A stretch of DNA of 46,064 bases from Candidatus Shapirobacteria bacterium (GTDB taxonomy: Bacteria > Patescibacteriota > Microgenomatia > UBA12405), in the NCBI GenBank assembly GCA_903825325.1, contig CAIKAI010000044.1:1-46064 (forward strand), read 5' to 3'. Positions within the stretch are counted from its first letter, which is position 1, and the number at the start of each line of letters is the position of its first letter. Below the pieces are notes generated by a model that did not search any database, was not told the origin of the DNA, and worked only from the letters and a program-made list of their open reading frames with translations. This document shows positions 21,001 through 38,321 of this stretch, piece after piece. The position numbers and the translations under genes are program-made.

Positions 21001-24000
21001 AATCTGCCCTTTAGGCAAAATTGGTTTTATAAAGATTTTTGTCAAAGTCTTGGTTATTTTATTTACAAAAGTATTGGCATACGATCCCGACGATCCTTTT
21101 TCCCCGTACAATGGTGTCGCCACATAATCCGGTATGTTCAAGGGCCAGCCCAACGGCACCATCTTGGCGACCTCATTGGCTTTCTGCAAATATAAATCTT
21201 TATCCGTTTGGCTCGCTGCTCGAATAATCTTGTTTAAATAGCGATTATAAACTTGGGCCACAATGTCATAAAAATATTGTGGCTCAGCTGTTTTAGTAAA
21301 TAAGCCATCTTTTTCCCATTGCTCTAAGGTGTCTAATTGCGAGTTAAATAGTTCGTCCGAATCCTTCGTTGTATTAGTCACGTATTTCTTCGCCCCTAAT
21401 TTTACGGCCCTAGCCGCCACGTCCGCCGCACTTACTACCACCGGCGGTGGGTTATTAACTCGACTTGCGTTTGGCACTGTCGCCGTTGAATTATTTGTTG
21501 TCGTTCGACTTGCGTTTGGCACTGTCGCCGTTGAATTATTTGTTGTCGTTCGACTTGCATTTGGCACTGTCGACAATCCCGCTTGGTAGTCGATTAACTT
21601 TTTATTTAAATTATCAATAATAGTTTGATCAACTCCGTATCCTTTAGCATCATTTATTAACTGCTTAACTACCTCCACATTGCTCGCGTCTACCGTCGTT
21701 ATTGTGGTTATTTTTGACATTGCCGCAATCCTCGCTCTCAACTCCGGAGTTGTCCCCGTTACCACAAATCCCGCTCCAAACATTTTTCTCCCCTCTCGAG
21801 CCAATGCTACTCGGGCAGTTATCTGAGCATTGGTTCCCGTCACCATAAAGTCTGCCCCAAATTCAGTTTGAGTATCTTTAATCAGTTGATCCCTGGCATT
21901 TAATGGTTGAACTCTGCTGCTATTTGGTATTGTCGCGGTCGAGTTAAATGCATCAATTTTCTTTTGCAAATCAGCAACCACATTCGGCTCAACGTGATTA
22001 TCCGTCGCCTTTTTCAACAACGCCGTCGCTTTAGTCATCGCTGCCGCTTCTGAAATTGGGTCCAACACTGCGATATCGTAAGTAGTTTTTAATTGAGTAT
22101 CAGTAATTCCCGACAAATTTACGTTTTGATACGCCGATCTAATTACCGTCATTAATTCCAATCGTTTGGAGGCTATCGCTGCCGTAAAATTATCCCAATC
22201 AGCATTTGTTTGAATACTTGGCAAAACATCCGTTCCAAACAAAGTTTTATAATTCTCCTCATTAACCATTCTGACGCTCGAAGTTTTCGCCGGCACTCGA
22301 TCGTTGGTTGGATTATTAGCCTCCCCCATTCCTACATTTCCCGCTCCACCATTATCAAATGCATCAATTCTATTTTGTAAATCATTTTTGATACTTTGAT
22401 CTATTTGATAGCCATTAGCACTGGTTAACAGCTTTTTTGCCTGAGTCACATTGGCCGAGGTTATCGGTCCCAGTGCTGCGATATCCGCCACATTTTTTAG
22501 TTGGACTGTTGTTAAATTAGCCGCATTAACATTTGGGTATACCGCTTTTATTTGAACTGCCAATTCGTCACGTTTAGCACTAATATCCGCCACCATTTGA
22601 TTCCATGTTCCATTGTTCATTGCCACCGGCTTGGGTACCACAATTCCCAAAGCCCGGGCATTTGATTCTGTTACCATCCTCGCTCCACTATTTACTTTTG
22701 GTACCAAATCGGTCGCAGTGTCAACCGCAACCGACGATGCTGCCGCGCTCCCCGAATTGTTAGTTGAAGTTGAGTTCGAACTTGCCACCGTCGTTGATTC
22801 CCCACCCATACCCCGTCTATTTTCGGTTGGGAAATCTTCAGCTGTGTATCTTGAAGCAATCGCTTTTTCCAACTCCACTAAATTCTTCGCCTCCGCCACC
22901 GAACCTTGAGTTTGATTACTTCCACCATTTTCAAAAGAAATCCCAGTAGTTGGATCAGTCGCCATCAATTTCTGATCGGGACTCCATTTTGTTTGGAAAT
23001 CACCATAAGCTTCCGATTTTCCCAAGCTGTCTAGTTGACCCTTCAAATCAGTGGCTAACTTTTGTAGCTCTGCTTGAGCACTTTCCAAAGTATTTTTTAC
23101 CGCCAAGGCTCCACTACCTGGAGTGTCATTTATCATTTGGTTTCTCAATTGAGATTCCTGAGTGAAAACCGCCAATTTATCGTCATAGTATTTATTAATT
23201 TCTGCCAGCTTCGCTTCTCTAGCCGCCGGATCGATTCCTATTTGTCCCTCAACTGCCTTCACTGCCAAACTTCGAGCATCAGCAATCGCCTCTCTCGACA
23301 TATTCTCAATCGCCTTTATGACTGTTTCTTGTCGAGTTTCAGCGATCGCTTTCGCCTGATTGGCTTCATATAATGCCTTTGCCTGGGCTGTATTAATATT
23401 TGGATCGGCTCCGACAATGAAATGATCCGGTCCATATAATTCTGCATTTCCATATTGGGGATTATCCCGCAAAAAGGTTCTGATATCGGCATCAAAGTTA
23501 TCCACTGAAGGCGGCTTACCCTCGTTGGTCATCACCCTCACAATTTCGCTATATAATCTATCCCGACCAGTACCTTGAATCGCCGTGTCCATGGTGGTAT
23601 TAGTGTCATTAATTTGGACCCATCTGGCATTTTTATCTACTGCCAAATTTAACCCGGTGTCGCGGTGTTGAATTTCCAACACATAATCAGCCGAGCTCTT
23701 AGCCATCCCCTCACCATAATTTGCTGCCACATAGTTTTTGTAGTCGGTGATATTGTTAAAAGTTTTAATCGATCCATCTTTGAATTTAATGGTAAAAGTA
23801 CTCGCATCGGCATCGATAATATGGTGGTCCCTAACTCCCTTATATTGTTCATCAATTGCCTTTGAAACCTGGTCAGTCATTTCTCCAGTCGCCGTATTCA
23901 AAATTCTCACATTCTCGTAAACTAGCTGAGCCCGGTCGAGCTGAATAATTTTGTCCGCCAACACATCCATTTGACTACTTGCCGGCTCTCCATTTCCATT

Positions 24001-27000
24001 AGCTCTAGCCTCCGCTCGTCCTCGAGCTGCTTGCATCTCTGCATCAAACGCTCTGCCATCCATCCCATTTTTTAAAGCAAAAACTTCATCCATCACTTCG
24101 GTAGTTAGTCTCTGGTATTCATCCCGACTAATAACATCTTTCGGAATCAAACGCGCCACCGCCTCTAAAGCATTTGCCACTCCGGTTACGCTTCGAGGTT
24201 CAATTAAAGGTGGGGCATTACCAATCTGCACTGCATTTTTCATATCCCCATAACCTTTTGTTATCAGGTCTGGAGTTGCATCCAAAATAATTACTTGACC
24301 TTCAGACTTCGATAAAAATAATTGCAAACCATTTGTTTGATTTGACTGGTCATAAAATTTGACACTCGCCAAATCTAGTACCGGGGCCTCTTTTCCTGCC
24401 CCCATGGCCGCATTGTACATCGCTTTCCCCGTTTCCTCCGCCGCTAAAATCTCCAATATTGATGACTTGGTTTGACCAGTTGTCGACCCTTTGTTTAATA
24501 TATGGCTCGAACCATCTGCCGCATAACCGTAATCAACCGTCGGCACTTCCGCCAATTGACCCAGCTCCGTATTTACCACATTTAATCTGGTTACCAAATC
24601 GCCACCGCCCAAGCGGTCTAGTATATCGGGGCGTAATAATATTTCTCTAAAATCAACATCACTTAAGTTTCTTAACGTTTCTTTTAGTGGTGAATTGCTA
24701 CTCTCGACCGTTTCCCGATATATCCTGGTAATGGTTGCTTCGTCCATTGGCAGCTTTGTTTTTGGATCGAACACATCAACAAAACTACTCTTACCATCTT
24801 TCAAATTTTGCATCACCTTATTCCGTAAATCCGTTATTGCCTTTTGTTGCAAAACCTCGCCTCTCAATGCCTGAATCTCGTCATATGTCATTCTTAAAGT
24901 GGTATCTGCCGCCGTCATTGTCAACAAATATTTAGCTTCGCCAATGTTTGTCCGATAATTCTTCCCCGCCTGGATATATTTGCTACCTTCATCGGCAATT
25001 ACCGTGGCCTTATCAAATATGTCTGCCAACAATTTTCCGTTATCCCCCCCGGCTTGAATTCCAAAATGCAGATCCGAGTCGGAAATCATTACTGACACTT
25101 TTCCTTTTTGTAACAGCACCTTAAATTCTTCCGTCGTCATTTCAACTGGAGTCACCTTGCCGTCAATCAACACTAATTTTCTCCAACCAATATCTTTATC
25201 AAAAAACACCCTGTCTATCCCCGCATCGGCATACATTGTATGAAAAGACTCATCAACCGCCCCATTTCGGAAGTTAACGTCAGCAAATATTTGCATCACC
25301 GGCTTACCCACATCGGCGTACAACAAAGTCATCGCTTGGCTGGCCACCAAACTTTTTCCGTAGCCGGTTTGTGCCGACAATACTACCACCGGATTATTGC
25401 TCGACGCCACCCCCACAAAATCGGCCAATTGTAGTTCTGTAAAAGCAAAGTTTGATCCCTTATAAGTCTTACCAAACGTTTCTACCCTGGCCACCACCCG
25501 ATTTAATTCATCAATCGCAGTTTTATAATCAGCCAATTGCTTCGGGTCAGTTACCACTTTTTCATTTACTCTCAATTGATTACTCCCCGGCTCTCTCACA
25601 AAAAGACTGCCACTTTCCGCCATCCCCACCAATGGTTTACCTGTGTCCTTAGCCGCTTTAGTCGCCTCCGCCAAAATCGCTTTTGAAGTATCCGACACGA
25701 CCACATTCGCCTCCGAAAATTTTGGCAACAAATTTGTGGTTGTATTCGATGAAAATAGGCTCTGAATTGCCTCACCAATTCTCCCCAATATGCCTTTCGG
25801 TGCCGCTGCTTCTGCCTCAGCTAAGTTTTTCAAAGCTAAATCATTTGCTGCTTTGGCCTCGTTCACCACATGCTTGGCTGCGTCTACTTCGCTCCCGGTA
25901 GCGTTTTTCAAGGCAGTTTCTGCTTTGGCCAAATCAGCGGCAGTTTTTGCCGCATAAGAATTAGCCGCATCAGCAATTTTTTGGGCTTGTTTTGCGGCTT
26001 CACCCGGGTTAAAAATATTGATGATGGCATCAACAATTTTTAGATTTTTTGGTAATGCTGCATTTGCCTCTGCCAGCGATTTATTAGCCGCATCATAAGA
26101 CATCTTGGCATCATTCACAGCTTTATTCGCCGCCGCCAGATCTTTTACCTCAATCGTTTCTCCGGCGGCTTGTCTGTCTTGTAATTCTGTCAAATTTTTC
26201 ATCGCCTCATTTAGGGTGGTCCGAGCATCATTCGCCTCAGCTGTGGCCACTGCAATTACTCTTTGAACCATGCTTCCCGACGAACTGGCTGGGACCACTA
26301 CATTGGCAATTCCTTCTGCAATTCGGCTCAGTAATCCTGGTGGTGTGGCTAATGCTTTGGCCGCGGCTAAGGTTTTATTAGCTTGAGCCACTAAGTCTTT
26401 CGCCAATGAAACCTCGCTCTCGGCATTAAATAGTTCGACCTTGGTCGACACCTTCAGGGTTCCGTTAGCTTTGTCAGTCTCAATCCTAGCATTGACCTCT
26501 GCTAGCTTTTCCTCAGCCTGCTTTAAATTAGATTCTGCACTGGCTTTGGCTGCTTCAGCCGAAACTACCACCTTGGTCGCCCGCGAGGTCACCGATTTAT
26601 CCGGATTAAATATATTTGACACTGCCTCCCCTAACCGTGCCGGCAAACTTTTTGCCAACAACGTTTCTGCCTGTTTTACCCCAATTTGTGCCTTCTCATT
26701 TGCTGTCATAGCTTTGTCCACTGCCTCCAAAGCCGACTTGATCTCCGCTGGTTTAACCGTTTCGCCGTTTTTCTGTTTGACGAGCAGATCATCTAAAGTC
26801 TTTTGGCTACTATCCAAGTTCGTTTTTGCTTCTTCCGCCTTTGCCTTGTTTAAATCGACAATTTTCTGCGCTTCCACCGCTACCGGATCCTTGGGTACAA
26901 TATTGGCGATATTCTTCCCTACCTGAGCCACAAATGCTTCAGCCACCTGTTGTACTGCATTTTTTGTCACCGGGACTACTGGTGCTTTTGCTGTTTCCGC

Positions 27001-30000
27001 CGCTGGTTTAGCACTCTTGGCTTTGGCTAATTCGGCGTCCAAAGCCGCCTTCGCCTCCACTTGTTTTTGATTAGCCAAATCTAGCTTGGCCTGAGCATCC
27101 ACTAATCCTTGGCTAACCGATTCCGGTACCTCGCCTTGAATTCTACTTGCTACTTCCGCCGAGGCCTTATATCTGTCTAAATTTTCCTGAGCCTGGACCA
27201 ATTCCGTTTTAGCCGTCTCCACCGCCGCTTGTTTTTGGTTCAAACTGGCTTCCGCCGTTGCCTTAGCACCTTCCACTGCCAAACTCGGAGCAATTTTCCC
27301 TAACTCGGCATTGGCCGCCGCCATTGCTCTTTGGTTAGTTTCTGCCAACTTCTGAGCGCCATTATATTCTGTCTGAGCCGCAGTCAAGATTTTTTTATCG
27401 GGATTTAATTTATTTGTCGCGCTTTCAAGCTTTAACTGCGATTCTACTAACTTCGTTAATCCAGCCTGATAATCAGCCGCCGCCTTGGCTGCCTGATTGG
27501 CCGCCTCCAAAGCTGTGTTAACTTCGGGCAACTTTGCTTTATCGGCCGGATCAGTCGAACTAGCTAATTTATCCGATAATGCCTGTAAATCAGTTTGCAA
27601 CTTAACCGCCTTCTCTAAAGCCGTTTTGGCTTGACTAGTGGTTGTTTCCACCAATTTTGTATTTAGGTCGGCCACCTTTTGATTCGCCGCTTCAGCCTTA
27701 GCTTTCGCTTGCTCTAGTGCTACACTGTCTTGCTTACTTTCGGCCAATTTGACCTCTAACGCCGCTTTTTCTGCTGCCGCTGCCGCCCCAGCCCTTTGCG
27801 ATGCTTGATATCCAGGGTCAGCAGTTAGCCTGTCCAATTGGCTTTGAGCGGCTTTTAATCCCTCTTCAGCTGACCTGACCGCCACCGAAGCTTCCAATAC
27901 CGCCTTTGGATCTCCCTGCAATTTCAAGCTGTCCAATTTACTTTGAGCCTCATCATAAGCCTTTTTCGATTGATTAACCGCGGCCGTAGCTTCAACCACC
28001 GGCGAAAGATTACTTAACTTTTGCGATGCTGCTGTATGCGCCTCCATTGCCTTACTCAAAGATTCCTGAGCTGCAGTTAATTTTGCCTGCTGTTCGGCAG
28101 TTACAGTTGATCCTTCTGTTACGAATTTGCTTACTTCACCAAACCTTTGGGCTGCAATATTTAAGTTTGCTGATGCACTTTCCAGCGATAATATCGCTGA
28201 AGTTTCTGTAATCGCCGCTTTAGCTTCGGCCACACTTTTAACCACTTCCCCGTTCGCCGCCAACCCAGTTAATCCCATGACACACATTGATTGCGAATCA
28301 ACATCCTGACTTAAGCCTTTCGAAATCGCTCCCGAGCAAGCGCTAATCACAAATAAATCCGCACCCGCCGCACTAACGATTGCTGATCCTGCCGAGCCAA
28401 CTTTAGCCGCAGTGTCTAATACCGCCATCGCCCCCGCCATGTCCGTTCCAGTATGACTCGCCAACGAATCAATTACTGCCGTCGCCCCCTTCGCCGCCAA
28501 TCCTCCCACCATTCCCCCGAGATGAAGCATTTGACCTGCCGCCATTGCCCCCGTCGAAGCACATTCTAGCTGAGAAGCATTTGGATTTGAACAGGTATCC
28601 ACTGCCATTTTTCCAAAAATTATTGACCCATTTATTGAATTAGCCACCTGAATCCCGGTTGCTACTGCCCTCGCACCATTAGCTAATGTTGCCGCCAACT
28701 CAGCACCCTGTGAGGCATACGCCACTAAATCTCCGGTTTCACTCACTATTTCTCCCGCTTTTGCAATCGTACTCAAGACTCCAGCTGCTTGACCCAAAGC
28801 GCCAGCCACCGCTCCCGTCCCCATCATAGCTGAAATAACTACCGTAGTGGTACAAGATTCCTGAGTAATTCCGGCCGTACCCACCCGACTACAAGTGTCA
28901 ATCGAGTTACTAATCATTGATGGTAAAAATAGTGCTCCTGAATATGTTAACCATAAAGATGCCACCACCGGAGTTGCCGCTCCGCCCGTACCAATAATTG
29001 CTGCCACCGAACCAACTGCTGCCGCTGCTGTCAACACTGGAGTAGCGATATCCCCTGCCACGCCCGCATAACCTTGAGTTAACAGACTAAGATTATATGA
29101 ATTTACTCCCGACATCGCCATATCACTTTGCGCCGTGGAAATTTTTTCCGACTCCCGATAGAACCGACCATTCGTATAATCATTAAAATTGATCCTCACA
29201 TATGTTCCCAAATCTTGCTTTCGGGTATCAAGCATTTGTCCTTCCTTTTCCCAAGTTGTTTTTCCCGCCGCAATGTCGGCCACCACTTGGTCATATCGAC
29301 CCTCATTAGTTACCGTTCGAATAATCGGCGCCTCAGCCTGAAACTTGGTTTTTTCTGCCATCAAATCAATCGCTTTTACATTCGGATTGCTCGACAATTT
29401 GATGATTGAGGCCATAGCGCTAATTTCAGTACTACAATTTTTTCCACCAAGTTGGGTGCATCTTTCCATTGTTAAAAACTCATCCTCTGAATGAAATACT
29501 GTCGCTTTTGCATTCAATGAGTTAGGTGTCAACGGATTCTTTGAGAAAGCATTCATATTTGTACTAATCGCAAACTGAGTGCATGACGTCAGGTTACTTT
29601 CACCCGCCGAAGATGAATTTTTTTTGCTTAAACAATCTTTGACGTTTTGGTCAAACATGGCTTGATCAATTGCTTTGGTCTGAGCTGATATACCCACCGT
29701 CGCCATATCATGCACGGCAATGTTCGCCTGTCTTTCAATTGACAACTTCGGGATTTCCGTGTTCGGATCAAAACCAGCCGCCACCAGCAAATCTTCTGGC
29801 TTGGCAAAAGAGGCGCATAAACTCGGTTTATCAGCACACACTTTTTCATTAACCAAATCAGTGTTTCCATTTAGATAGTTATTTTGCAACACCGCCTTGA
29901 TATAGTAATCAATTACCGGGACATCTTTGTACAATGGCAAATATTTTTGCACCAATACTGCATCGGATAAACTTGAACATTTATCCGCTCCCATATCCTT

Positions 30001-32188: not shown

Positions 32189-32845
32189 TTACTGTATTTC
32201 AAAAACAACTGTTAACTTTTTTTCTACTTTAACGGTCTCAAAATTGGTATAAAATCCGGGTTTTTCGTTTACCGAACCTCCCAAAATTCCGTTATCATCG
32301 GAAATTGAAATTAAATTACCCACATTTTTACCAGTAACTTTAGCCAGCACTTCAGCTTTAACCCTAGCGTCTTTAATTGCTTCAGTGCGAACTTTCTCCT
32401 CAACATTAGCTGCATCTTTTGGAATAAAAGTTACTGCGCTAATTGAATTGGCCCCGTTAGTAAAAAGCAATCTAATCAGATCACTCGTTTTCGACACTGA
32501 TTTCGACTTAATGTTCATCGCACTCACCATAATAAATTTACCGTCACTTTGCGGCGATACTTGGTAGAAGCTCTTATTAATTTCGGCATCTTTTCCCATG
32601 GTGTTTAGGGTCAAATCCGTCAACCGTAACAAATTAGCTTCGCCACTCGCAATTGCATCACCTGCCGACGCTCCCGAACCTGCGGCCGTCACCACTAACG
32701 ACACTGAATCAACCGGCACCACCATTGATCCGTCACCCGTTACACCTACAGTTGTTTTTATCCTCCCCAACCACAGGTAACCTCCGACTAATAACAATGC
32801 CACCAACACCCCGGTTATCCAGGGCTTATTTTTAATAAAGTCCAT
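32189..32845 (-). CDS. SIMPL-domain (DUF541-like) envelope protein with N-terminal TM/signal
   Basis: 218-aa track ORF with hydrophobic N-terminus WITGVLVALLLVGGYLWL. SIMPL-like pattern: VGVTGDGSMVVPVDSVSLVV, then ISAVTFIPKDAANVEEKVRTEAIKDARVKAEVLAKVTGKNVGNLISISD. Its stop is 8 nt upstream of the giant-gene GTG. Confidence 0.65.
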   Translation of the reverse strand: MDFIKNKPWITGVLVALLLVGGYLWLGRIKTTVGVTGDGSMVVPVDSVSLVVTAAGSGASAGDAIASGEANLLRLTDLTLNTMGKDAEINKSFYQVSPQSDGKFIMVSAMNIKSKSVSKTSDLIRLLFTNGANSISAVTFIPKDAANVEEKVRTEAIKDARVKAEVLAKVTGKNVGNLISISDDNGILGGSVNEKPGFYTNFETVKVEKKLTVVFEIQ

Positions 32846-35691: not shown

Positions 35692-37638
35692 TTACTCATA
35701 CTTCAACGCGTTCAGTGCTGAGATTTGGCTCGCCCTCTTGGCCGGGTACCACCCCGTTATTACCCCTAAAATCAATGACGCGGCTAATATCCCCACCGAG
35801 AACCATCCATTCATTACAAATAAGTTCTGGCCGATTTGGGTGCTGTTAAACACTAGCCGATTTAGGATCCCTCCGATCACCCACCCCAGTCCTAGGCCGC
35901 CTATTCCTCCCACTCCCAGAATTAACACTGCTTCGGTCAACAACAATCTAGTTACATCCACATTGCTTGTTCCCATACTTTTCATCACGCCGATTTCCCG
36001 TGTTCTTTCCAATAACGACACTGTTAAGGTATTAAACATTCCTAGCAGCGCCACCACTAAAGCAATCGCCCCAAATGACCCCAATAAAAATCTAATAATC
36101 GCAAATAATTTGGCGATTTGCGCCAGCGTATCCACTACACTCCGTGTCGTCAACCCCATCGATTGAATTAACGATCGTACTTCTGGCAGTTGCTCTTCGG
36201 TTTTAGCCATCACCCTTACTAGTGAGTATTCTTTAATTCCTAAACTTTCCAAATCAGCCCGCGGCACCAAAATCACTGGCTTCTTAATGTCGTTGTACAC
36301 TCCTACCACGTTATATTTTTCCGGTTCCGACAATACCCGACCACTAATTTGTGGCAACACACTACTGGTAACTAAATACGACACCTCCACCTCCGACCCC
36401 AAAATCTTTTTATCGTCACTATTCCAGGCTTTTACCAATGCTTGGCTGACGATTATTTCTTTTTTATTCCCCTGCCACACTTTTATGGTCACATTATTAC
36501 TCACGGTATCCGTTTTCTTTTTGTCTTCCAACAACGTTACCAATTGCGCCGATTGAGTCGCCGTCCCCAATACCATCCCCTGACCACTTTCCAACATCTT
36601 TTCAATATCTTTGTCCACGGCCGACAATACATTTACGTTTTTCATATCCAAATAAACTTCTTTTTCTTCCTTAACATCGGTATAAACACCATCGCCCAAA
36701 CTGTCTCTAATTGGCATTTTTGCTTTGATCCACTTGCCTTGCAATTTCCCGTTGTTGGTTGCCACTCTTCCCAATCCTGAACTATCATCATAAACTCCAC
36801 CCCAGGCCACCTCACCCCGATAACTGTCTAAAATTGATCCGCGGATCCAACCCATCATCTTTCCCGTTGCCGCTGGTGCGTCGTAGGCGGGAATATATGT
36901 CTCATCTCGCAATCGAAAATCAATCGTCTCCGCTGGCATCGCCGACTCAGTCGCCACTCCGGCCACCTCACCTATTGTTTTTTGGGTAGCGTCTTTATTC
37001 AACAACTCTTGAATATCTGCCGTCCCATCATATTGTTTATCCGCTTCTTTTGAAAAATTTTTACCTGTCACAATTTTTATATCCGCCATCGCCAAATAAT
37101 TATTTGATAAGCCTGTTACCACCGTATCCACTTTCGAATTTTTATAAATTACCTGCCCCGCCAAATTAATCGCTTGATCCACTTTTTCGACTCCAGGTAT
37201 GACTTTGATTTTTCCCAAGACATCACTATTAATTTTTACCTTACTTGATTCCGAAGTTACCTCGGCCACTCGCAAGGCATCCGGCCAAATTATTTTTTGT
37301 GTCACCACTCCTTGCAGTCCGTAACCAAAAGACACTAACAACACCACTGCCCCAATTCCCACCGCCACCCCACCCACCGTCACCGCCATTTTTGATCGAC
37401 CTTTTACCAAGTTTCGATAAGCCAACCACATTGTTTGCTTCCAAGACAAGCTCCCCGACTGTGGTTTAATAATTTTTCCCAAATACATGAAATTCTCTTT
37501 AATTATCCGAATATGGCTTTTTATATCAATCAGTCTTCGATAATCATATCTAACTATACCAAAATACATCTTTTTCCCAATTTTCATCACTATTTTTTGG
37601 GTTTTGGTCTTTAGATTTTGGAGTTTATTAATTATCAT
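35692..37638 (-). CDS. MacB/FtsX-family ABC transporter permease with a large extracytoplasmic domain
   Basis: 648 aa. TM1 is MAVTVGGVAVGIGAVVLLVSFGYG, followed by an extracytoplasmic region of about 400 aa. C-terminal FtsX domain: LLERTREIGVMKSMGTSNVDVTRLLLTEAVLILGVGG. ATGA overlap with the ATPase gene at 37635-37638. An internal start (MYLGKII) cannot be excluded. Confidence 0.85.
   Translation of the reverse strand: MIINKLQNLKTKTQKIVMKIGKKMYFGIVRYDYRRLIDIKSHIRIIKENFMYLGKIIKPQSGSLSWKQTMWLAYRNLVKGRSKMAVTVGGVAVGIGAVVLLVSFGYGLQGVVTQKIIWPDALRVAEVTSESSKVKINSDVLGKIKVIPGVEKVDQAINLAGQVIYKNSKVDTVVTGLSNNYLAMADIKIVTGKNFSKEADKQYDGTADIQELLNKDATQKTIGEVAGVATESAMPAETIDFRLRDETYIPAYDAPAATGKMMGWIRGSILDSYRGEVAWGGVYDDSSGLGRVATNNGKLQGKWIKAKMPIRDSLGDGVYTDVKEEKEVYLDMKNVNVLSAVDKDIEKMLESGQGMVLGTATQSAQLVTLLEDKKKTDTVSNNVTIKVWQGNKKEIIVSQALVKAWNSDDKKILGSEVEVSYLVTSSVLPQISGRVLSEPEKYNVVGVYNDIKKPVILVPRADLESLGIKEYSLVRVMAKTEEQLPEVRSLIQSMGLTTRSVVDTLAQIAKLFAIIRFLLGSFGAIALVVALLGMFNTLTVSLLERTREIGVMKSMGTSNVDVTRLLLTEAVLILGVGGIGGLGLGWVIGGILNRLVFNSTQIGQNLFVMNGWFSVGILAASLILGVITGWYPAKRASQISALNALKYE
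37614..37626 (+). repeat. Third exact copy of the 13-mer gattttggagttt, at the ABC ATPase/permease junction and inside the annotated 5' end of the permease ORF
   Basis: Exact 13/13 match to the murB-upstream copies, in the same plus-strand orientation. Confidence 0.8.
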
Positions 37639-38321
37639 ATTTTCTCCTTTTCAATATAACCGTCTTTCATAAATATTCTTCGATCGGCCAACTTTAGAAA
37701 TGACTCATCATGAGTCACCATTAAAATGGTTTTACCTTCTTTTTTATTTAAGTTTACCAATAAGCTAATTAATTTTTTACCATTTTTACTATCCAAATTT
37801 CCCGTCGGTTCGTCGGCCACCACCATTTTTGGATCAACTACTAGTGCCCGCGCTAAACTTACCCGCTGTTGTTCTCCTCCCGACAAATCCATCGGTTTTT
37901 TATTGGCCATTTCTTCTAATTCCACCGTCTTTAATGCTGCCATCGCTTTCTCTTTTAATTCTTTTTGACTCAAATTTGCCAACATCAGTGGATAGGCCAC
38001 GTTTTCCCACACCGATAATGACTTAATCCAGTTACTTTGTTGAAAAACTATCCCCACATTGCGCCATCGATGTGCTGCCCGTTCATCTTCACTCATTGTG
38101 GCCAACCATTTATCCATCAAATGCACCCTTCCCCGGCTCGGGTCCTCCATTCCTAAAATTAAATGCAACAATGTCGATTTGCCACAGCCCGACGGTCCAA
38201 AAATAATCGCCATTTCCCCTTCCTTAATTTTTAAATTAATTTTTTTCAATACCCACACCCGTCGACTTCCCACCTTATATGACATCCCCACCCGCTTTAG
38301 ATCGACAATTATGTTGTTCAT
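37635..38321 (-). CDS. ABC transporter ATP-binding protein (MacB/LolD/FtsE-like)
   Basis: Walker A GPSGCGKST, Q-loop VFQQ, signature LSGGEQQRVSLARAL, Walker B VVADEPTGNLD, H-loop VTHD. ATGA overlap with the upstream giant gene at 38318-38321. Confidence 0.92.
   Translation of the reverse strand: MNNIIVDLKRVGMSYKVGSRRVWVLKKINLKIKEGEMAIIFGPSGCGKSTLLHLILGMEDPSRGRVHLMDKWLATMSEDERAAHRWRNVGIVFQQSNWIKSLSVWENVAYPLMLANLSQKELKEKAMAALKTVELEEMANKKPMDLSGGEQQRVSLARALVVDPKMVVADEPTGNLDSKNGKKLISLLVNLNKKEGKTILMVTHDESFLKLADRRIFMKDGYIEKEKI

Follow-up and report, generated by a model that had tools for sequence, protein, structure and literature searches.

The Candidate Phyla Radiation (CPR; Patescibacteria) makes up a large share of bacterial diversity, and its members are thought to live attached to other cells through contact molecules that are largely unknown. 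The closest described systems come from other ultra-small prokaryotes. In the giant ('Archaeovorin'-type) proteins of Omnitrophota, divergent SecA_DEAD domains lie beside transmembrane (TM) regions (bioRxiv 10.1101/2023.11.21.568195), and the SPEARE proteins of Nanohaloarchaeota (DPANN), which reach 8,553 amino acids (aa) in an episymbiont and are proposed to open a pore to the host, combine an ectodomain, a TM region and a cytoplasmic ResIII domain (PMC6642349). Here we analyse a stretch of 46,064 nucleotides (nt) from Candidatus Shapirobacteria bacterium (GenBank assembly GCA_903825325.1, contig CAIKAI010000044.1, positions 1 to 46,064), hereafter the window, in which a minus-strand open reading frame (ORF) runs from a GTG at 32181 without a stop down to base 1 and thus encodes at least 10,727 aa. 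The best explanation for this ORF is a chromosomal gene for a giant envelope protein (>10,727 aa) of a CPR/Patescibacteria bacterium, with the head end lying in the stretch described here. Its head, rich in paired cysteines (Cys), is followed by a charge-poor hydrophobic block and then by a remainder of ~9,400 aa that includes ATP-dependent domains. With a probability of about 0.45, we favour a topology in which this C-terminal remainder begins outside the cell and the block is a membrane-insertion module, with or without delivery.

The window gene resembles the giant genes of Omnitrophota in encoding more than 10,000 aa in an ultra-small host-dependent bacterium and in an N-terminal region that is largely without annotation. 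Furthermore, in both cases the number and sidedness of TM segments differ between predictors, a divergent SF2/DEAD-type ATPase lies near the membrane segments, and cell-wall-degrading domains are present. However, no sequence relationship to the Omnitrophota proteins is detectable, and the ATPase found here matches neither Pfam SecA_DEAD nor E. coli SecA. The phylum also differs, the window protein coming from the Microgenomates group of the CPR, and there is a single compact hydrophobic block where the Omnitrophota proteins have numerous TM regions, together with a Cys-pair architecture that is not reported for those proteins.

Like the SPEARE proteins, the window protein is a giant with an adhesin-like ectodomain that varies, a TM region and, across from the ectodomain, a conserved SF2 (ResIII) domain. 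Unlike it, SPEARE proteins are archaeal, mostly have a TM domain close to the C-terminus as their anchor, and carry laminin-G, protease and toxin-like domains. No Pfam match to laminin-G/adhesion, serine protease or ResIII domains was found in the window protein, and just a sub-threshold ResIII match in one relative; the architecture is analogous only.

Colicin pore domains, the diphtheria toxin T domain, the delivery region of large clostridial toxins and the translocators of type III secretion systems (T3SS) are hydrophobic helical-hairpin insertion modules. The block resembles them in having apolar, small-residue-rich hairpins that are too weakly hydrophobic for ordinary stop-transfer and that lie between a binding part and enzymatic cargo. 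It differs from them in lacking detectable homology: no Pfam or PDB match was obtained, and a Foldseek search of the block model against the PDB returned nothing better than generic helical repeats at E 0.7. To our knowledge, neither disulfide-stapled hairpin bases nor a cargo of ~9,400 aa is a feature of such toxin modules. The giant Sec-exported surface proteins of monoderms (Ebh-type fibres) offer another likeness, in that they have an N-terminal export signal, a helical repeat stalk, a length of ~10,000 aa and a Cys-poor composition; we know of no kinase, SF2 ATPase or internal hydrophobic block in them. Grouped by kind, the protein falls among the giant envelope proteins with many domains that are known from ultra-small, host-dependent prokaryotes (Omnitrophota, SPEARE). 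It has no detectable homology to either, comes from a different phylum group and has a head of its own.

Results

Cysteine use along the chain

Seven distinct members of the family were compared, namely the window protein and those of L001, L002/P0003, L009, L003/L005, L006 and L008. The order of parts is common to all of them: an anchor, a variable Cys-rich ectodomain, Cys-pair modules, a helical domain with TTW and GRF motifs, the hydrophobic block with three Cys pairs, a coiled-coil-like stalk and an SF2-type ATPase. The first 5,000 aa of the window protein had no match anywhere in Pfam, NCBIfam, PHROGs or PDB sequences.

Cys residues are concentrated at the head of the window protein, with 28 of the 35 located in the first 1,300 aa (odds ratio 29.6, Fisher p = 5e-20), where they make up 14 pairs up to the end of the block. 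This strict pairing, defined as at most 20 residues within a pair and at least 40 between pairs, was reproduced in none of 200,000 random placements. The same regularity was observed across the family, in which the Cys counts up to the last block Cys were even in 7/7 members (28, 28, 20, 18, 62, 32 and 22; 210 Cys in 7,250 aa), the count of 62 belonging to the ectodomain variant of L005. Even-biased Cys use marks exported disulfide-bonded proteins, and exported proteins either pair or exclude Cys (PMC2823432). An N-terminal anchor and an even number of Cys in short-range pairs, both of which are features of an exported disulfide-bonded ectodomain, were found here. Because the counts are even and the Cys lie in short-range pairs in all seven members, an extracytoplasmic and disulfide-stabilised location of the first ~1,040 aa is well supported, in agreement with what a first-pass annotation, made by a model from the sequence alone, had proposed for the N-terminal domains.

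This contrasted with the chain that follows the block. Over the family, only 17 Cys were counted in 21,084 post-block aa (0.08%), twelve of them in C-x2-6-C pairs, whereas neighbouring proteins without a TM-like segment contain 42 Cys in 5,758 aa (0.73%); the post-block chain is therefore ninefold depleted. In the window protein, the post-block Cys amount to three C-x6-C pairs, within a repeated NCSPGFxSC motif, plus one single Cys, and the ATPase is devoid of Cys over 700 aa. A related constraint is known from translocated autotransporter passengers, which tolerate only closely spaced Cys pairs (PMC3546941).

The charge-poor block

A charge-poor segment of about 265 aa rich in G/A/S/T had been described in the first-pass annotation, and our analysis confirmed it as a block with 52.9% G/A/S/T and 8.5% charged residues, compared to 24.5% charged residues in the remaining protein. 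With the exception of the Cys repeats, it is the sole stretch of the whole protein with less than 10% charged residues per 100 aa. Its supposed glycine-zipper-like character turned out to be a matter of composition only, since neither small-xxx-small motifs (48 vs 52.8 +/- 4.2 in shuffles) nor GxxxG motifs (4 vs 4.8 expected from shuffles) were in excess; GFLGTGMG is carried by some homologs.

Three further Cys pairs, which had not been listed before, are located within the block (1097/1110, 1197/1207 and 1282/1300). They are invariant in a 5-sequence alignment and present in 7/7 homologs. Across the homologs, none of the three hairpins is shorter than 43 aa, and the first always spans 45 aa without a charged residue. 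In both AlphaFold models, which are of low confidence, the helix-helix turns fall inside all three block Cys pairs.

Hydrophobicity was calibrated on six real TM helices of the window, namely four of the FtsX/MacB permease and the anchors of the SIMPL protein and of the metallophosphoesterase. On a Hessa-type scale, which was calibrated against the TM helices of this window alone, the sum over 19 residues ranged from +2.3 to +7.9 for the block in all homologs, in comparison with -1.6 to +0.9 for the real TM helices; a second giant ORF of the window, which encodes a clearly extracellular beta-rich protein, reaches +4.7. Similarly, block segments scored 1.1-2.0 in a Kyte-Doolittle 19-residue window (real TM helices, 1.8-2.45) and 0.52-0.65 in Eisenberg <H> over 21 residues (FtsX TM helices, 0.73-0.86). 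A Goldman-Engelman-Steitz (GES)/TopPred-type scan, which is generous to Ala, Gly and Thr, gave 3-7 'certain' block segments with a parity that varied by homolog, and it also flagged sites in the kinase region and the Walker A motif of the ATPase. Several TM-length hydrophobic stretches had been seen in the first-pass annotation; no block segment matches real TM helices on the Hessa-type scale, on which the block does not qualify as a classical polytopic inner-membrane domain. The hydrophobic moment of the block segments is low, which makes them uniformly apolar rather than amphipathic bundle helices. Judged from these profiles, the block is membrane-active in character but marginal as a stop-transfer signal, and the parity given by predictors is expected to be unstable. 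Integration by the producer's own translocon would likewise be marginal at this hydrophobicity.

Sidedness of the C-terminal remainder

Two topologies had been set against each other in the first-pass annotation: a giant transmembrane sensor or scaffold with a cytoplasmic remainder, and a membrane-insertion module with domains delivered into a target cell. The question was the right one, and its cytoplasmic side is disfavoured by the hairpins, by the charge of the loops and by the depletion of Cys. Firstly, three hairpins that are each just long enough for two spans give an even number of spans, so that the remainder would begin outside. Secondly, summed over the seven homologs, the Cys loops contain 18 K/R vs 36 D/E and the hairpin tips 27 K/R vs 20 D/E, while the post-block flank is neutral. 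Mild as this bias is, the net acidic loops and slightly basic tips would place the Cys loops outside by the positive-inside rule, which agrees with disulfides like those of the eleven ectodomain pairs. Thirdly, we see no reason why a chain in the cytoplasm should exclude Cys. After the block, neither the window protein nor six of the other homolog stretches available (~21,000 aa in all) contained a segment that reaches a Hessa-type sum of +3.5 or better; L009 has one borderline segment at this cut-off (aa 2652). Altogether, the comparative evidence leans against a cytoplasmic remainder, a question that sequence alone cannot close.

Under the favoured topology, Sec would export the chain and the anchor would hold it with the N-terminus inside, and the Cys pairs would form disulfides outside the cell. 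The three weakly hydrophobic hairpins would constitute the membrane-insertion module, with the bases formed by the Cys loops on the outer face and the slightly basic tips reaching the other side. If the number of spans is even, the ~9,400 aa that come next (stalk, SF2 ATPase, Ser/Thr kinase and VanY domain) would start on the outside. That they contain hardly any Cys, closely spaced pairs aside, would fit a chain that must avoid large disulfide loops in an oxidising space. The most speculative step is that the hairpins might insert into the membrane of a partner or host, with the ATP-dependent domains acting only once threaded into that cell; under such delivery, the N-terminal repeats would be an adhesin and the VanY domain would open the host wall. 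Delivery would also provide the ATP-dependent domains with a site at which they can work. In its most far-reaching form, which we regard as unlikely, the protein would be an injection device of a CPR episymbiont that is complete in itself and depends on contact. The Cys repeats would bind the host surface. The disulfide-stapled hairpins would exit the producer without integrating into its membrane and enter that of the host, after which the chain of ~9,400 aa would be threaded into the host cytoplasm, where the SF2 ATPase would arrive first as a ratchet and the kinase and other modules would reprogramme the host, the VanY domain helping to breach the wall.

Several points weigh against a remainder that begins outside. 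ATP-dependent enzymes are useless outside a cell unless they are delivered, and neither a demonstrated precedent nor an energy source can be pointed to here for threading ~9,400 aa into a second cell. In every homolog examined, the first domain that follows the block is the SF2 ATPase, as would be expected of a cytoplasmic motor coupled to a membrane domain, and no extracellular-type domain (immunoglobulin, fn3 or lectin) was found in the post-block region. The VanY domain does not fix the side and was rejected as a sidedness marker, because enzymes of this type have peptidoglycan precursors as substrates in addition to the wall itself (PMC9866002). Furthermore, in several homologs the first hairpin has a second helix of low hydrophobicity, so that the number of spans could be odd. 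Finally, the block was modelled by AlphaFold with a predicted local distance difference test (pLDDT) score of only 27-45 (mean 41 from the single sequence and 44 from the 5-sequence alignment), and the disulfides of the Cys pairs are themselves predicted.

These points lead to the serious rival, which we consider somewhat unlikely: a polytopic anchor in the producer's own membrane, with an odd number of spans and a cytoplasmic C-terminus, as in the sensor or scaffold of the first-pass annotation. The ectodomain would sense or bind a partner, and the 9,400-aa remainder, with its VanY domain acting on cytoplasmic precursors, would serve at the site of contact as a giant scaffold or motor, perhaps as a machine for import or translocation. 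ATP is required by every post-block enzyme that could be identified, and the ATPase directly follows block and stalk; the likeness to SPEARE proteins, with their variable ectodomain, TM region and conserved cytoplasmic ResIII domain (PMC6642349), and the weak ResIII match of the relative P0002 point in the same direction. The abrupt change of Cys use exactly at the end of the block is what a compartment boundary would produce, and the first helix of each hairpin is the more hydrophobic one, which makes three true spans (S1, S3 and S5) possible. In L005 (11213-21265), a sub-threshold match to DnaJ (J-domain; E 1.7e-4) was detected at post-block aa 2305-2360, which, if real, points to action in the cytoplasm. 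However, a cytoplasmic remainder leaves both the Cys depletion (0.08% vs 0.73%) and the C-x2-6-C pairing without a reason, and an odd number of spans cannot put all three equivalent Cys loops outside. Moreover, these loops are acidic, the post-block flank is not positively charged, and no real TM helix of the window is as weakly hydrophobic as the block segments.

The evidence from parity, Cys and charge that speaks for the favoured topology applies equally to a six-span anchor in the producer's own membrane with the C-terminus outside. In that case, the protein would be a permanently attached giant surface fibre from which nothing is delivered, with enzymes that act in the wall or at the surface or that are vestigial. 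The Ala-rich helical stalks on both sides of the block suit a fibre, and the VanY domain could remodel the wall of the producer or of its partner. We consider this improbable, given that intact kinase and Walker A/B motifs are conserved in a chain that would find no ATP outside the cell, and that the hydrophobicity is marginal for stable integration.

A non-membrane origin of the block's composition was also weighed, according to which the block would be a tightly packed, soluble Ala/Gly-rich helical bundle (alacoil-like) that prolongs the disulfide-stapled stalk. The Cys pairs do run on into the block, again at predicted helix-helix turns, no segment is as hydrophobic as real TM helices on the Hessa-type scale, and small-xxx-small motifs are not in excess. 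On the other hand, a soluble domain would not typically run for 270 aa at 8.5% charged residues with a low hydrophobic moment, no other such region occurs after the Cys repeats in 10,727 aa, and the charge-free first hairpin of 45 aa is kept in 7/7 homologs, which makes a soluble bundle quite improbable. Hardly credible is homology of the block to the hydrophobic T3SS translocators (SseC/IpaB/YopB, PF04888): an exhaustive phmmer search gave P0005 (Pfam SseC 6e-16) at E 2.3e-5, aligned over helices and a hydrophobic hairpin, but composition-adjusted BLAST yielded E 3.7, hhalign 64% probability over only 56 columns outside the hydrophobic part, and 0/5 family members matched Pfam SseC at E up to 10.

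Individual domains of the giant protein

The features of the giant protein and of its upstream neighbour are compiled in Table 1.

Table 1. Coordinates of the parts of the giant protein and of the adjacent SIMPL gene (window positions unless stated otherwise)
Feature	Residues (aa)	Coordinates	Strand	Remarks
Start codon GTG and N-terminal signal anchor	1-27	32101..32181	-	M/V-KKK, then AGLQFAGLILMVAAVFLTT; 19-residue hydrophobic stretch
Post-anchor motif	24-38	32068..32112	-	NLVQQNQENRSHAAS; L-x-Q-K/Q-x-Q/A-E/D-N-R-x-x-A
Ala-rich helical segment	35-176	31654..32079	-	41.5% Ala
Three Cys repeats of ~85 aa	177-432	30886..31653	-	One Cys pair each; GC..GWY..G..GGC[FY]QV.TGI.N ... NG..QI.V.G
Eight Cys-pair units	437-930	29392..30873	-	First five are clear copies of a ~65-aa repeat, L..C....C..[ML][ST]..L[IV]..Y.P.Y
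Conserved helical pre-block domain	931-1040	29062..29391	-	TTW and N..T.GRF.R motifs, invariant columns in alignment A1
Charge-poor G/A/S/T-rich block	1041-1312	28246..29061	-	Interpreted as three helical hairpins, with one invariant Cys pair closing each
Ala/Lys/Glu/Gln-rich helical stalk	1313-2200	25582..28245	-	Between block and ATPase; no hydrophobic segment
Divergent SF2-type P-loop ATPase	2201-2900	23482..25581	-	Walker A TGYGKS at aa 2270; DEGS, DATP, RDTGLNL, QGTGRDR
Ser/Thr protein kinase domain	8841-9073	4963..5661	-	Pfam Pkinase (PF00069), E 8.9e-18, 65 bits vs cut-off 31.7
VanY-type (M15) D-Ala-D-Ala carboxypeptidase domain	10094-10211	1549..1902	-	PF02557, E 1.7e-22, 80 bits vs cut-off 25
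SIMPL/DUF541 gene with N-terminal membrane anchor		32189..32845	-	Pfam SIMPL, E 1.1e-19; 7 nt upstream of the giant gene
SIMPL gene in relatives		L001 1412-2068; L002 4011-4667; L009 8149-8814; L005 6897-7562; L006 3497-4162		Positions in the respective loci

An alternative TTG start lies up to 9 codons upstream of the GTG, and the homolog P0001 is called from the V/MKK position equivalent to the GTG of the window. The lysine-plus-hydrophobic anchor proposed in the first-pass annotation is indeed present (M/V-KKK followed by AGLQFAGLILMVAAVFLTT), with a Kyte-Doolittle value over 19 residues of 1.95, a Hessa-type sum of +1.2 and an Eisenberg <H> of 0.67, and a comparable hydrophobic N-terminal segment was found in 7/7 homologs. 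The motif that follows is kept in 5/7 homologs (the window, L001, P0003/L002, L009 and L003/L005) and may be a candidate processing or recognition site. It ends in small-x-Ala and could, by its sequence, represent a distant signal-peptidase or sorting site.

The Ala-rich segment had been taken for a spacer. Its composition bears out the Ala-rich part of that description, but a passive role does not agree with the codon pattern in the comparison with L001. Between window 31432-32181 (aa 1-250, covering the anchor, the Ala-rich segment and the first Cys repeat) and L001 2076-2825, protein identity is 70-86% despite only 38-58% identity at third codon positions, which indicates strong purifying selection. 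Other parts are less conserved with respect to L001, with 25-34% identity for aa 450-1000 and 64% for the SIMPL neighbour. No part of the head is more constrained than the Ala-rich segment, but the other five homologs lack it.

The three Cys repeats claimed before were all recovered (pattern matches at aa 185-207, 271-296 and 357-388), and the ~85-aa units proved to be homologous to one another, with 44-66% identity and E-values from 3e-10 to 6e-26 in pairwise BLAST; L001 has two copies. The eight C-x6-17-C loops are likewise present as Cys pairs (454/465, 518/526, 583/601, 657/672, 726/735, 782/789, 850/867 and 908/916, with spacings of 6-17). They are not isolated loops, however, as at least five belong to the repeated ~65-aa module, which also occurs in relatives. 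A hidden Markov model (HMM) built from the five window copies identified 5 domains in L001 (four at <1e-6), 4 in L005 and weak copies in L009 and P0003, so that this profile detects three relatives at E <1e-3. Neither the Cys repeats nor the ~65-aa modules had a Pfam or PDB match even at E up to 10. By extrapolation from the low-confidence models of the block, the ~65-aa units may adopt a helix-loop-helix arrangement. The pre-block domain that follows is predicted to be all helical with a pLDDT of 62-84 and is the sole part of the AlphaFold model with usable confidence.

The linker that corresponds to the stalk is shorter in P0003 and L009. The SF2-type ATPase is the first conserved domain after the block, also in L009 and L001, and is 37% identical to that of P0003 over ~700 aa; its motifs TGYGKS, DEGS, DATP, RDTGLNL and QGTGRDR are invariant in alignment A2. 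Family matches were sub-threshold and restricted to relatives (DEAD, E 0.005, in P0003; ResIII, E 0.009, in P0002), and the domain is probably best assigned to SF2 in a generic sense only. A likeness to SecA would matter, because the giant proteins of Omnitrophota carry divergent SecA_DEAD domains beside TM regions. A SecA-type DEAD motor was nevertheless rejected: no Pfam match to SecA_DEAD or SecA_PP_bind was obtained at E up to 10, neither phmmer nor a profile search against the PDB gave a match, and hhalign against E. coli SecA returned a probability of 1%. The resemblance is limited to generic SF2 motifs and an insert of ~260 aa between motifs II and III.

One protein-kinase domain was detected in the window, and the plural kinases of the first-pass annotation were not found. 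Additional matches of this domain are PknE in the PDB (4e-9) and PHROG 2361 (9e-22), and the catalytic motifs of Hanks-type kinases are intact (VIIK, HGDVKPSN and DFG). Similarly, the VanY domain retains the metal-ligand motifs SEHNTGYAVD and EDWH. As the motifs of kinase, ATPase and VanY domain are all intact, these domains are presumably active somewhere.

Further elements were noticed along the giant gene and in a relative. A module of the form EGxENCSPGFxSC ... NSHEYVNxLxQxIQN is present in three copies at ~10836, ~7443 and ~4746 (aa 7116, 8247 and 9146) and holds the sole Cys pairs of the last 9,400 aa; a similar motif, DDKCSPGYSGCSVR ... NSHDYQNNL, occurs in L009. HExxH motifs (HEHRH and HEEQH) lie at ~16695 and ~8604 (aa 5163 and 7860) in stretches without annotation, and the post-block region of L009 has HEEIH/HELNH. 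Although Pfam provides no support, these stretches are possible candidates for zincin-like peptidase modules. On the opposite strand of the giant gene, two Cys-rich ORFs at 30880-31389 (+) and 26441-26926 (+), of 169 and 161 aa with 5.9% and 3.1% Cys, look like shadow ORFs and not like genes.

Relatives and gene neighbourhood

An exhaustive HMMER search with aa 920-1330 against 1.84 billion representatives revealed three more true relatives beyond P0001, together with the SseC-family protein P0005. DNA-pattern scans added loci from a metagenome-assembled genome of Candidatus Beckwithbacteria (Patescibacteria, Microgenomates group) and from metagenome contigs. Two relatives are located on contigs of 845 kb and 949 kb (Ga0209097_10000001 and Ga0172380_10000001). 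A word-index protein search retrieved P0001 alone and missed the others, including the 37%-identical ATPase of 700 aa, and it returned none for the block alignment; the composition of the query probably saturated the candidate list, and a negative result from such an index is uninformative for Ala/Gly-rich or giant queries. In L001, the closest relative, a frameshift and a stretch of N (~5096 and ~8210-8240) break the giant gene into three called genes; both are probably assembly artefacts.

A SIMPL gene adjoins the giant gene in 6/7 lineages (the window, L001, L002, L009, L003/L005 and L006) and is absent in L008. It usually lies 7 nt upstream of the giant gene or overlaps it, while in L006 it is found on the opposite strand. 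Its product is itself membrane-anchored with an extracytoplasmic domain, and this arrangement makes SIMPL a likely functional partner of the giant protein. The gene order is metallophosphoesterase-ruvC-SIMPL-giant in the window, ruvC-SIMPL-giant in L001 and dnaA-dnaN-SIMPL-giant in L002. In L003/L005, the ORF sizes match the ruvC-SIMPL-giant order, as judged from size, and in L009, ORFs of a size matching the order of L002 and a SIMPL-like one precede the giant gene. The window also contains murB. A phage or mobile-element origin, as a polyvalent or tape-measure protein, was discarded: PHROGs matches only the kinase, a scan of viral contigs revealed no relatives, and the neighbours are housekeeping genes.

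A second giant ORF at 38318-46063 (-), of at least 2,581 aa, runs off the right end of the window and contains fn3 and purple-acid-phosphatase-N-like domains. Its end overlaps a gene for an ABC ATPase (37635-38321, -), which in turn overlaps a gene for a MacB/FtsX-type permease (35692-37638, -). These three genes look like one operon for a second huge surface protein.

Discussion

At least three domain families at the head end of the giant protein are new: one formed by the Cys repeats, one by the Cys-pair modules of ~65 aa, and one by the TTW/GRF domain together with its three-hairpin block. Equally new is the abrupt change along the chain from Cys in pairs to the exclusion of Cys. The argument drawn from this distribution is a cheap, general topology read-out for giant proteins in cases where TM predictors disagree.

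With more than 32 kb, the gene would take up ~3-4% of a genome of 0.85-0.95 Mb, which is the size of the contigs that bear two of the relatives. The family poses a testable question, that is, which side of which membrane holds a megadalton chain with a kinase and an ATPase. If the chain is cytoplasmic, the protein would be a bacterial counterpart of the archaeal SPEARE proteins, with a motor at the site of host contact. If it lies outside or is delivered, it would represent a new kind of effector-delivery system. Should the injection device prove true, it would embody a new principle of protein translocation and provide a molecular handle on how ultra-small bacteria exploit their hosts.

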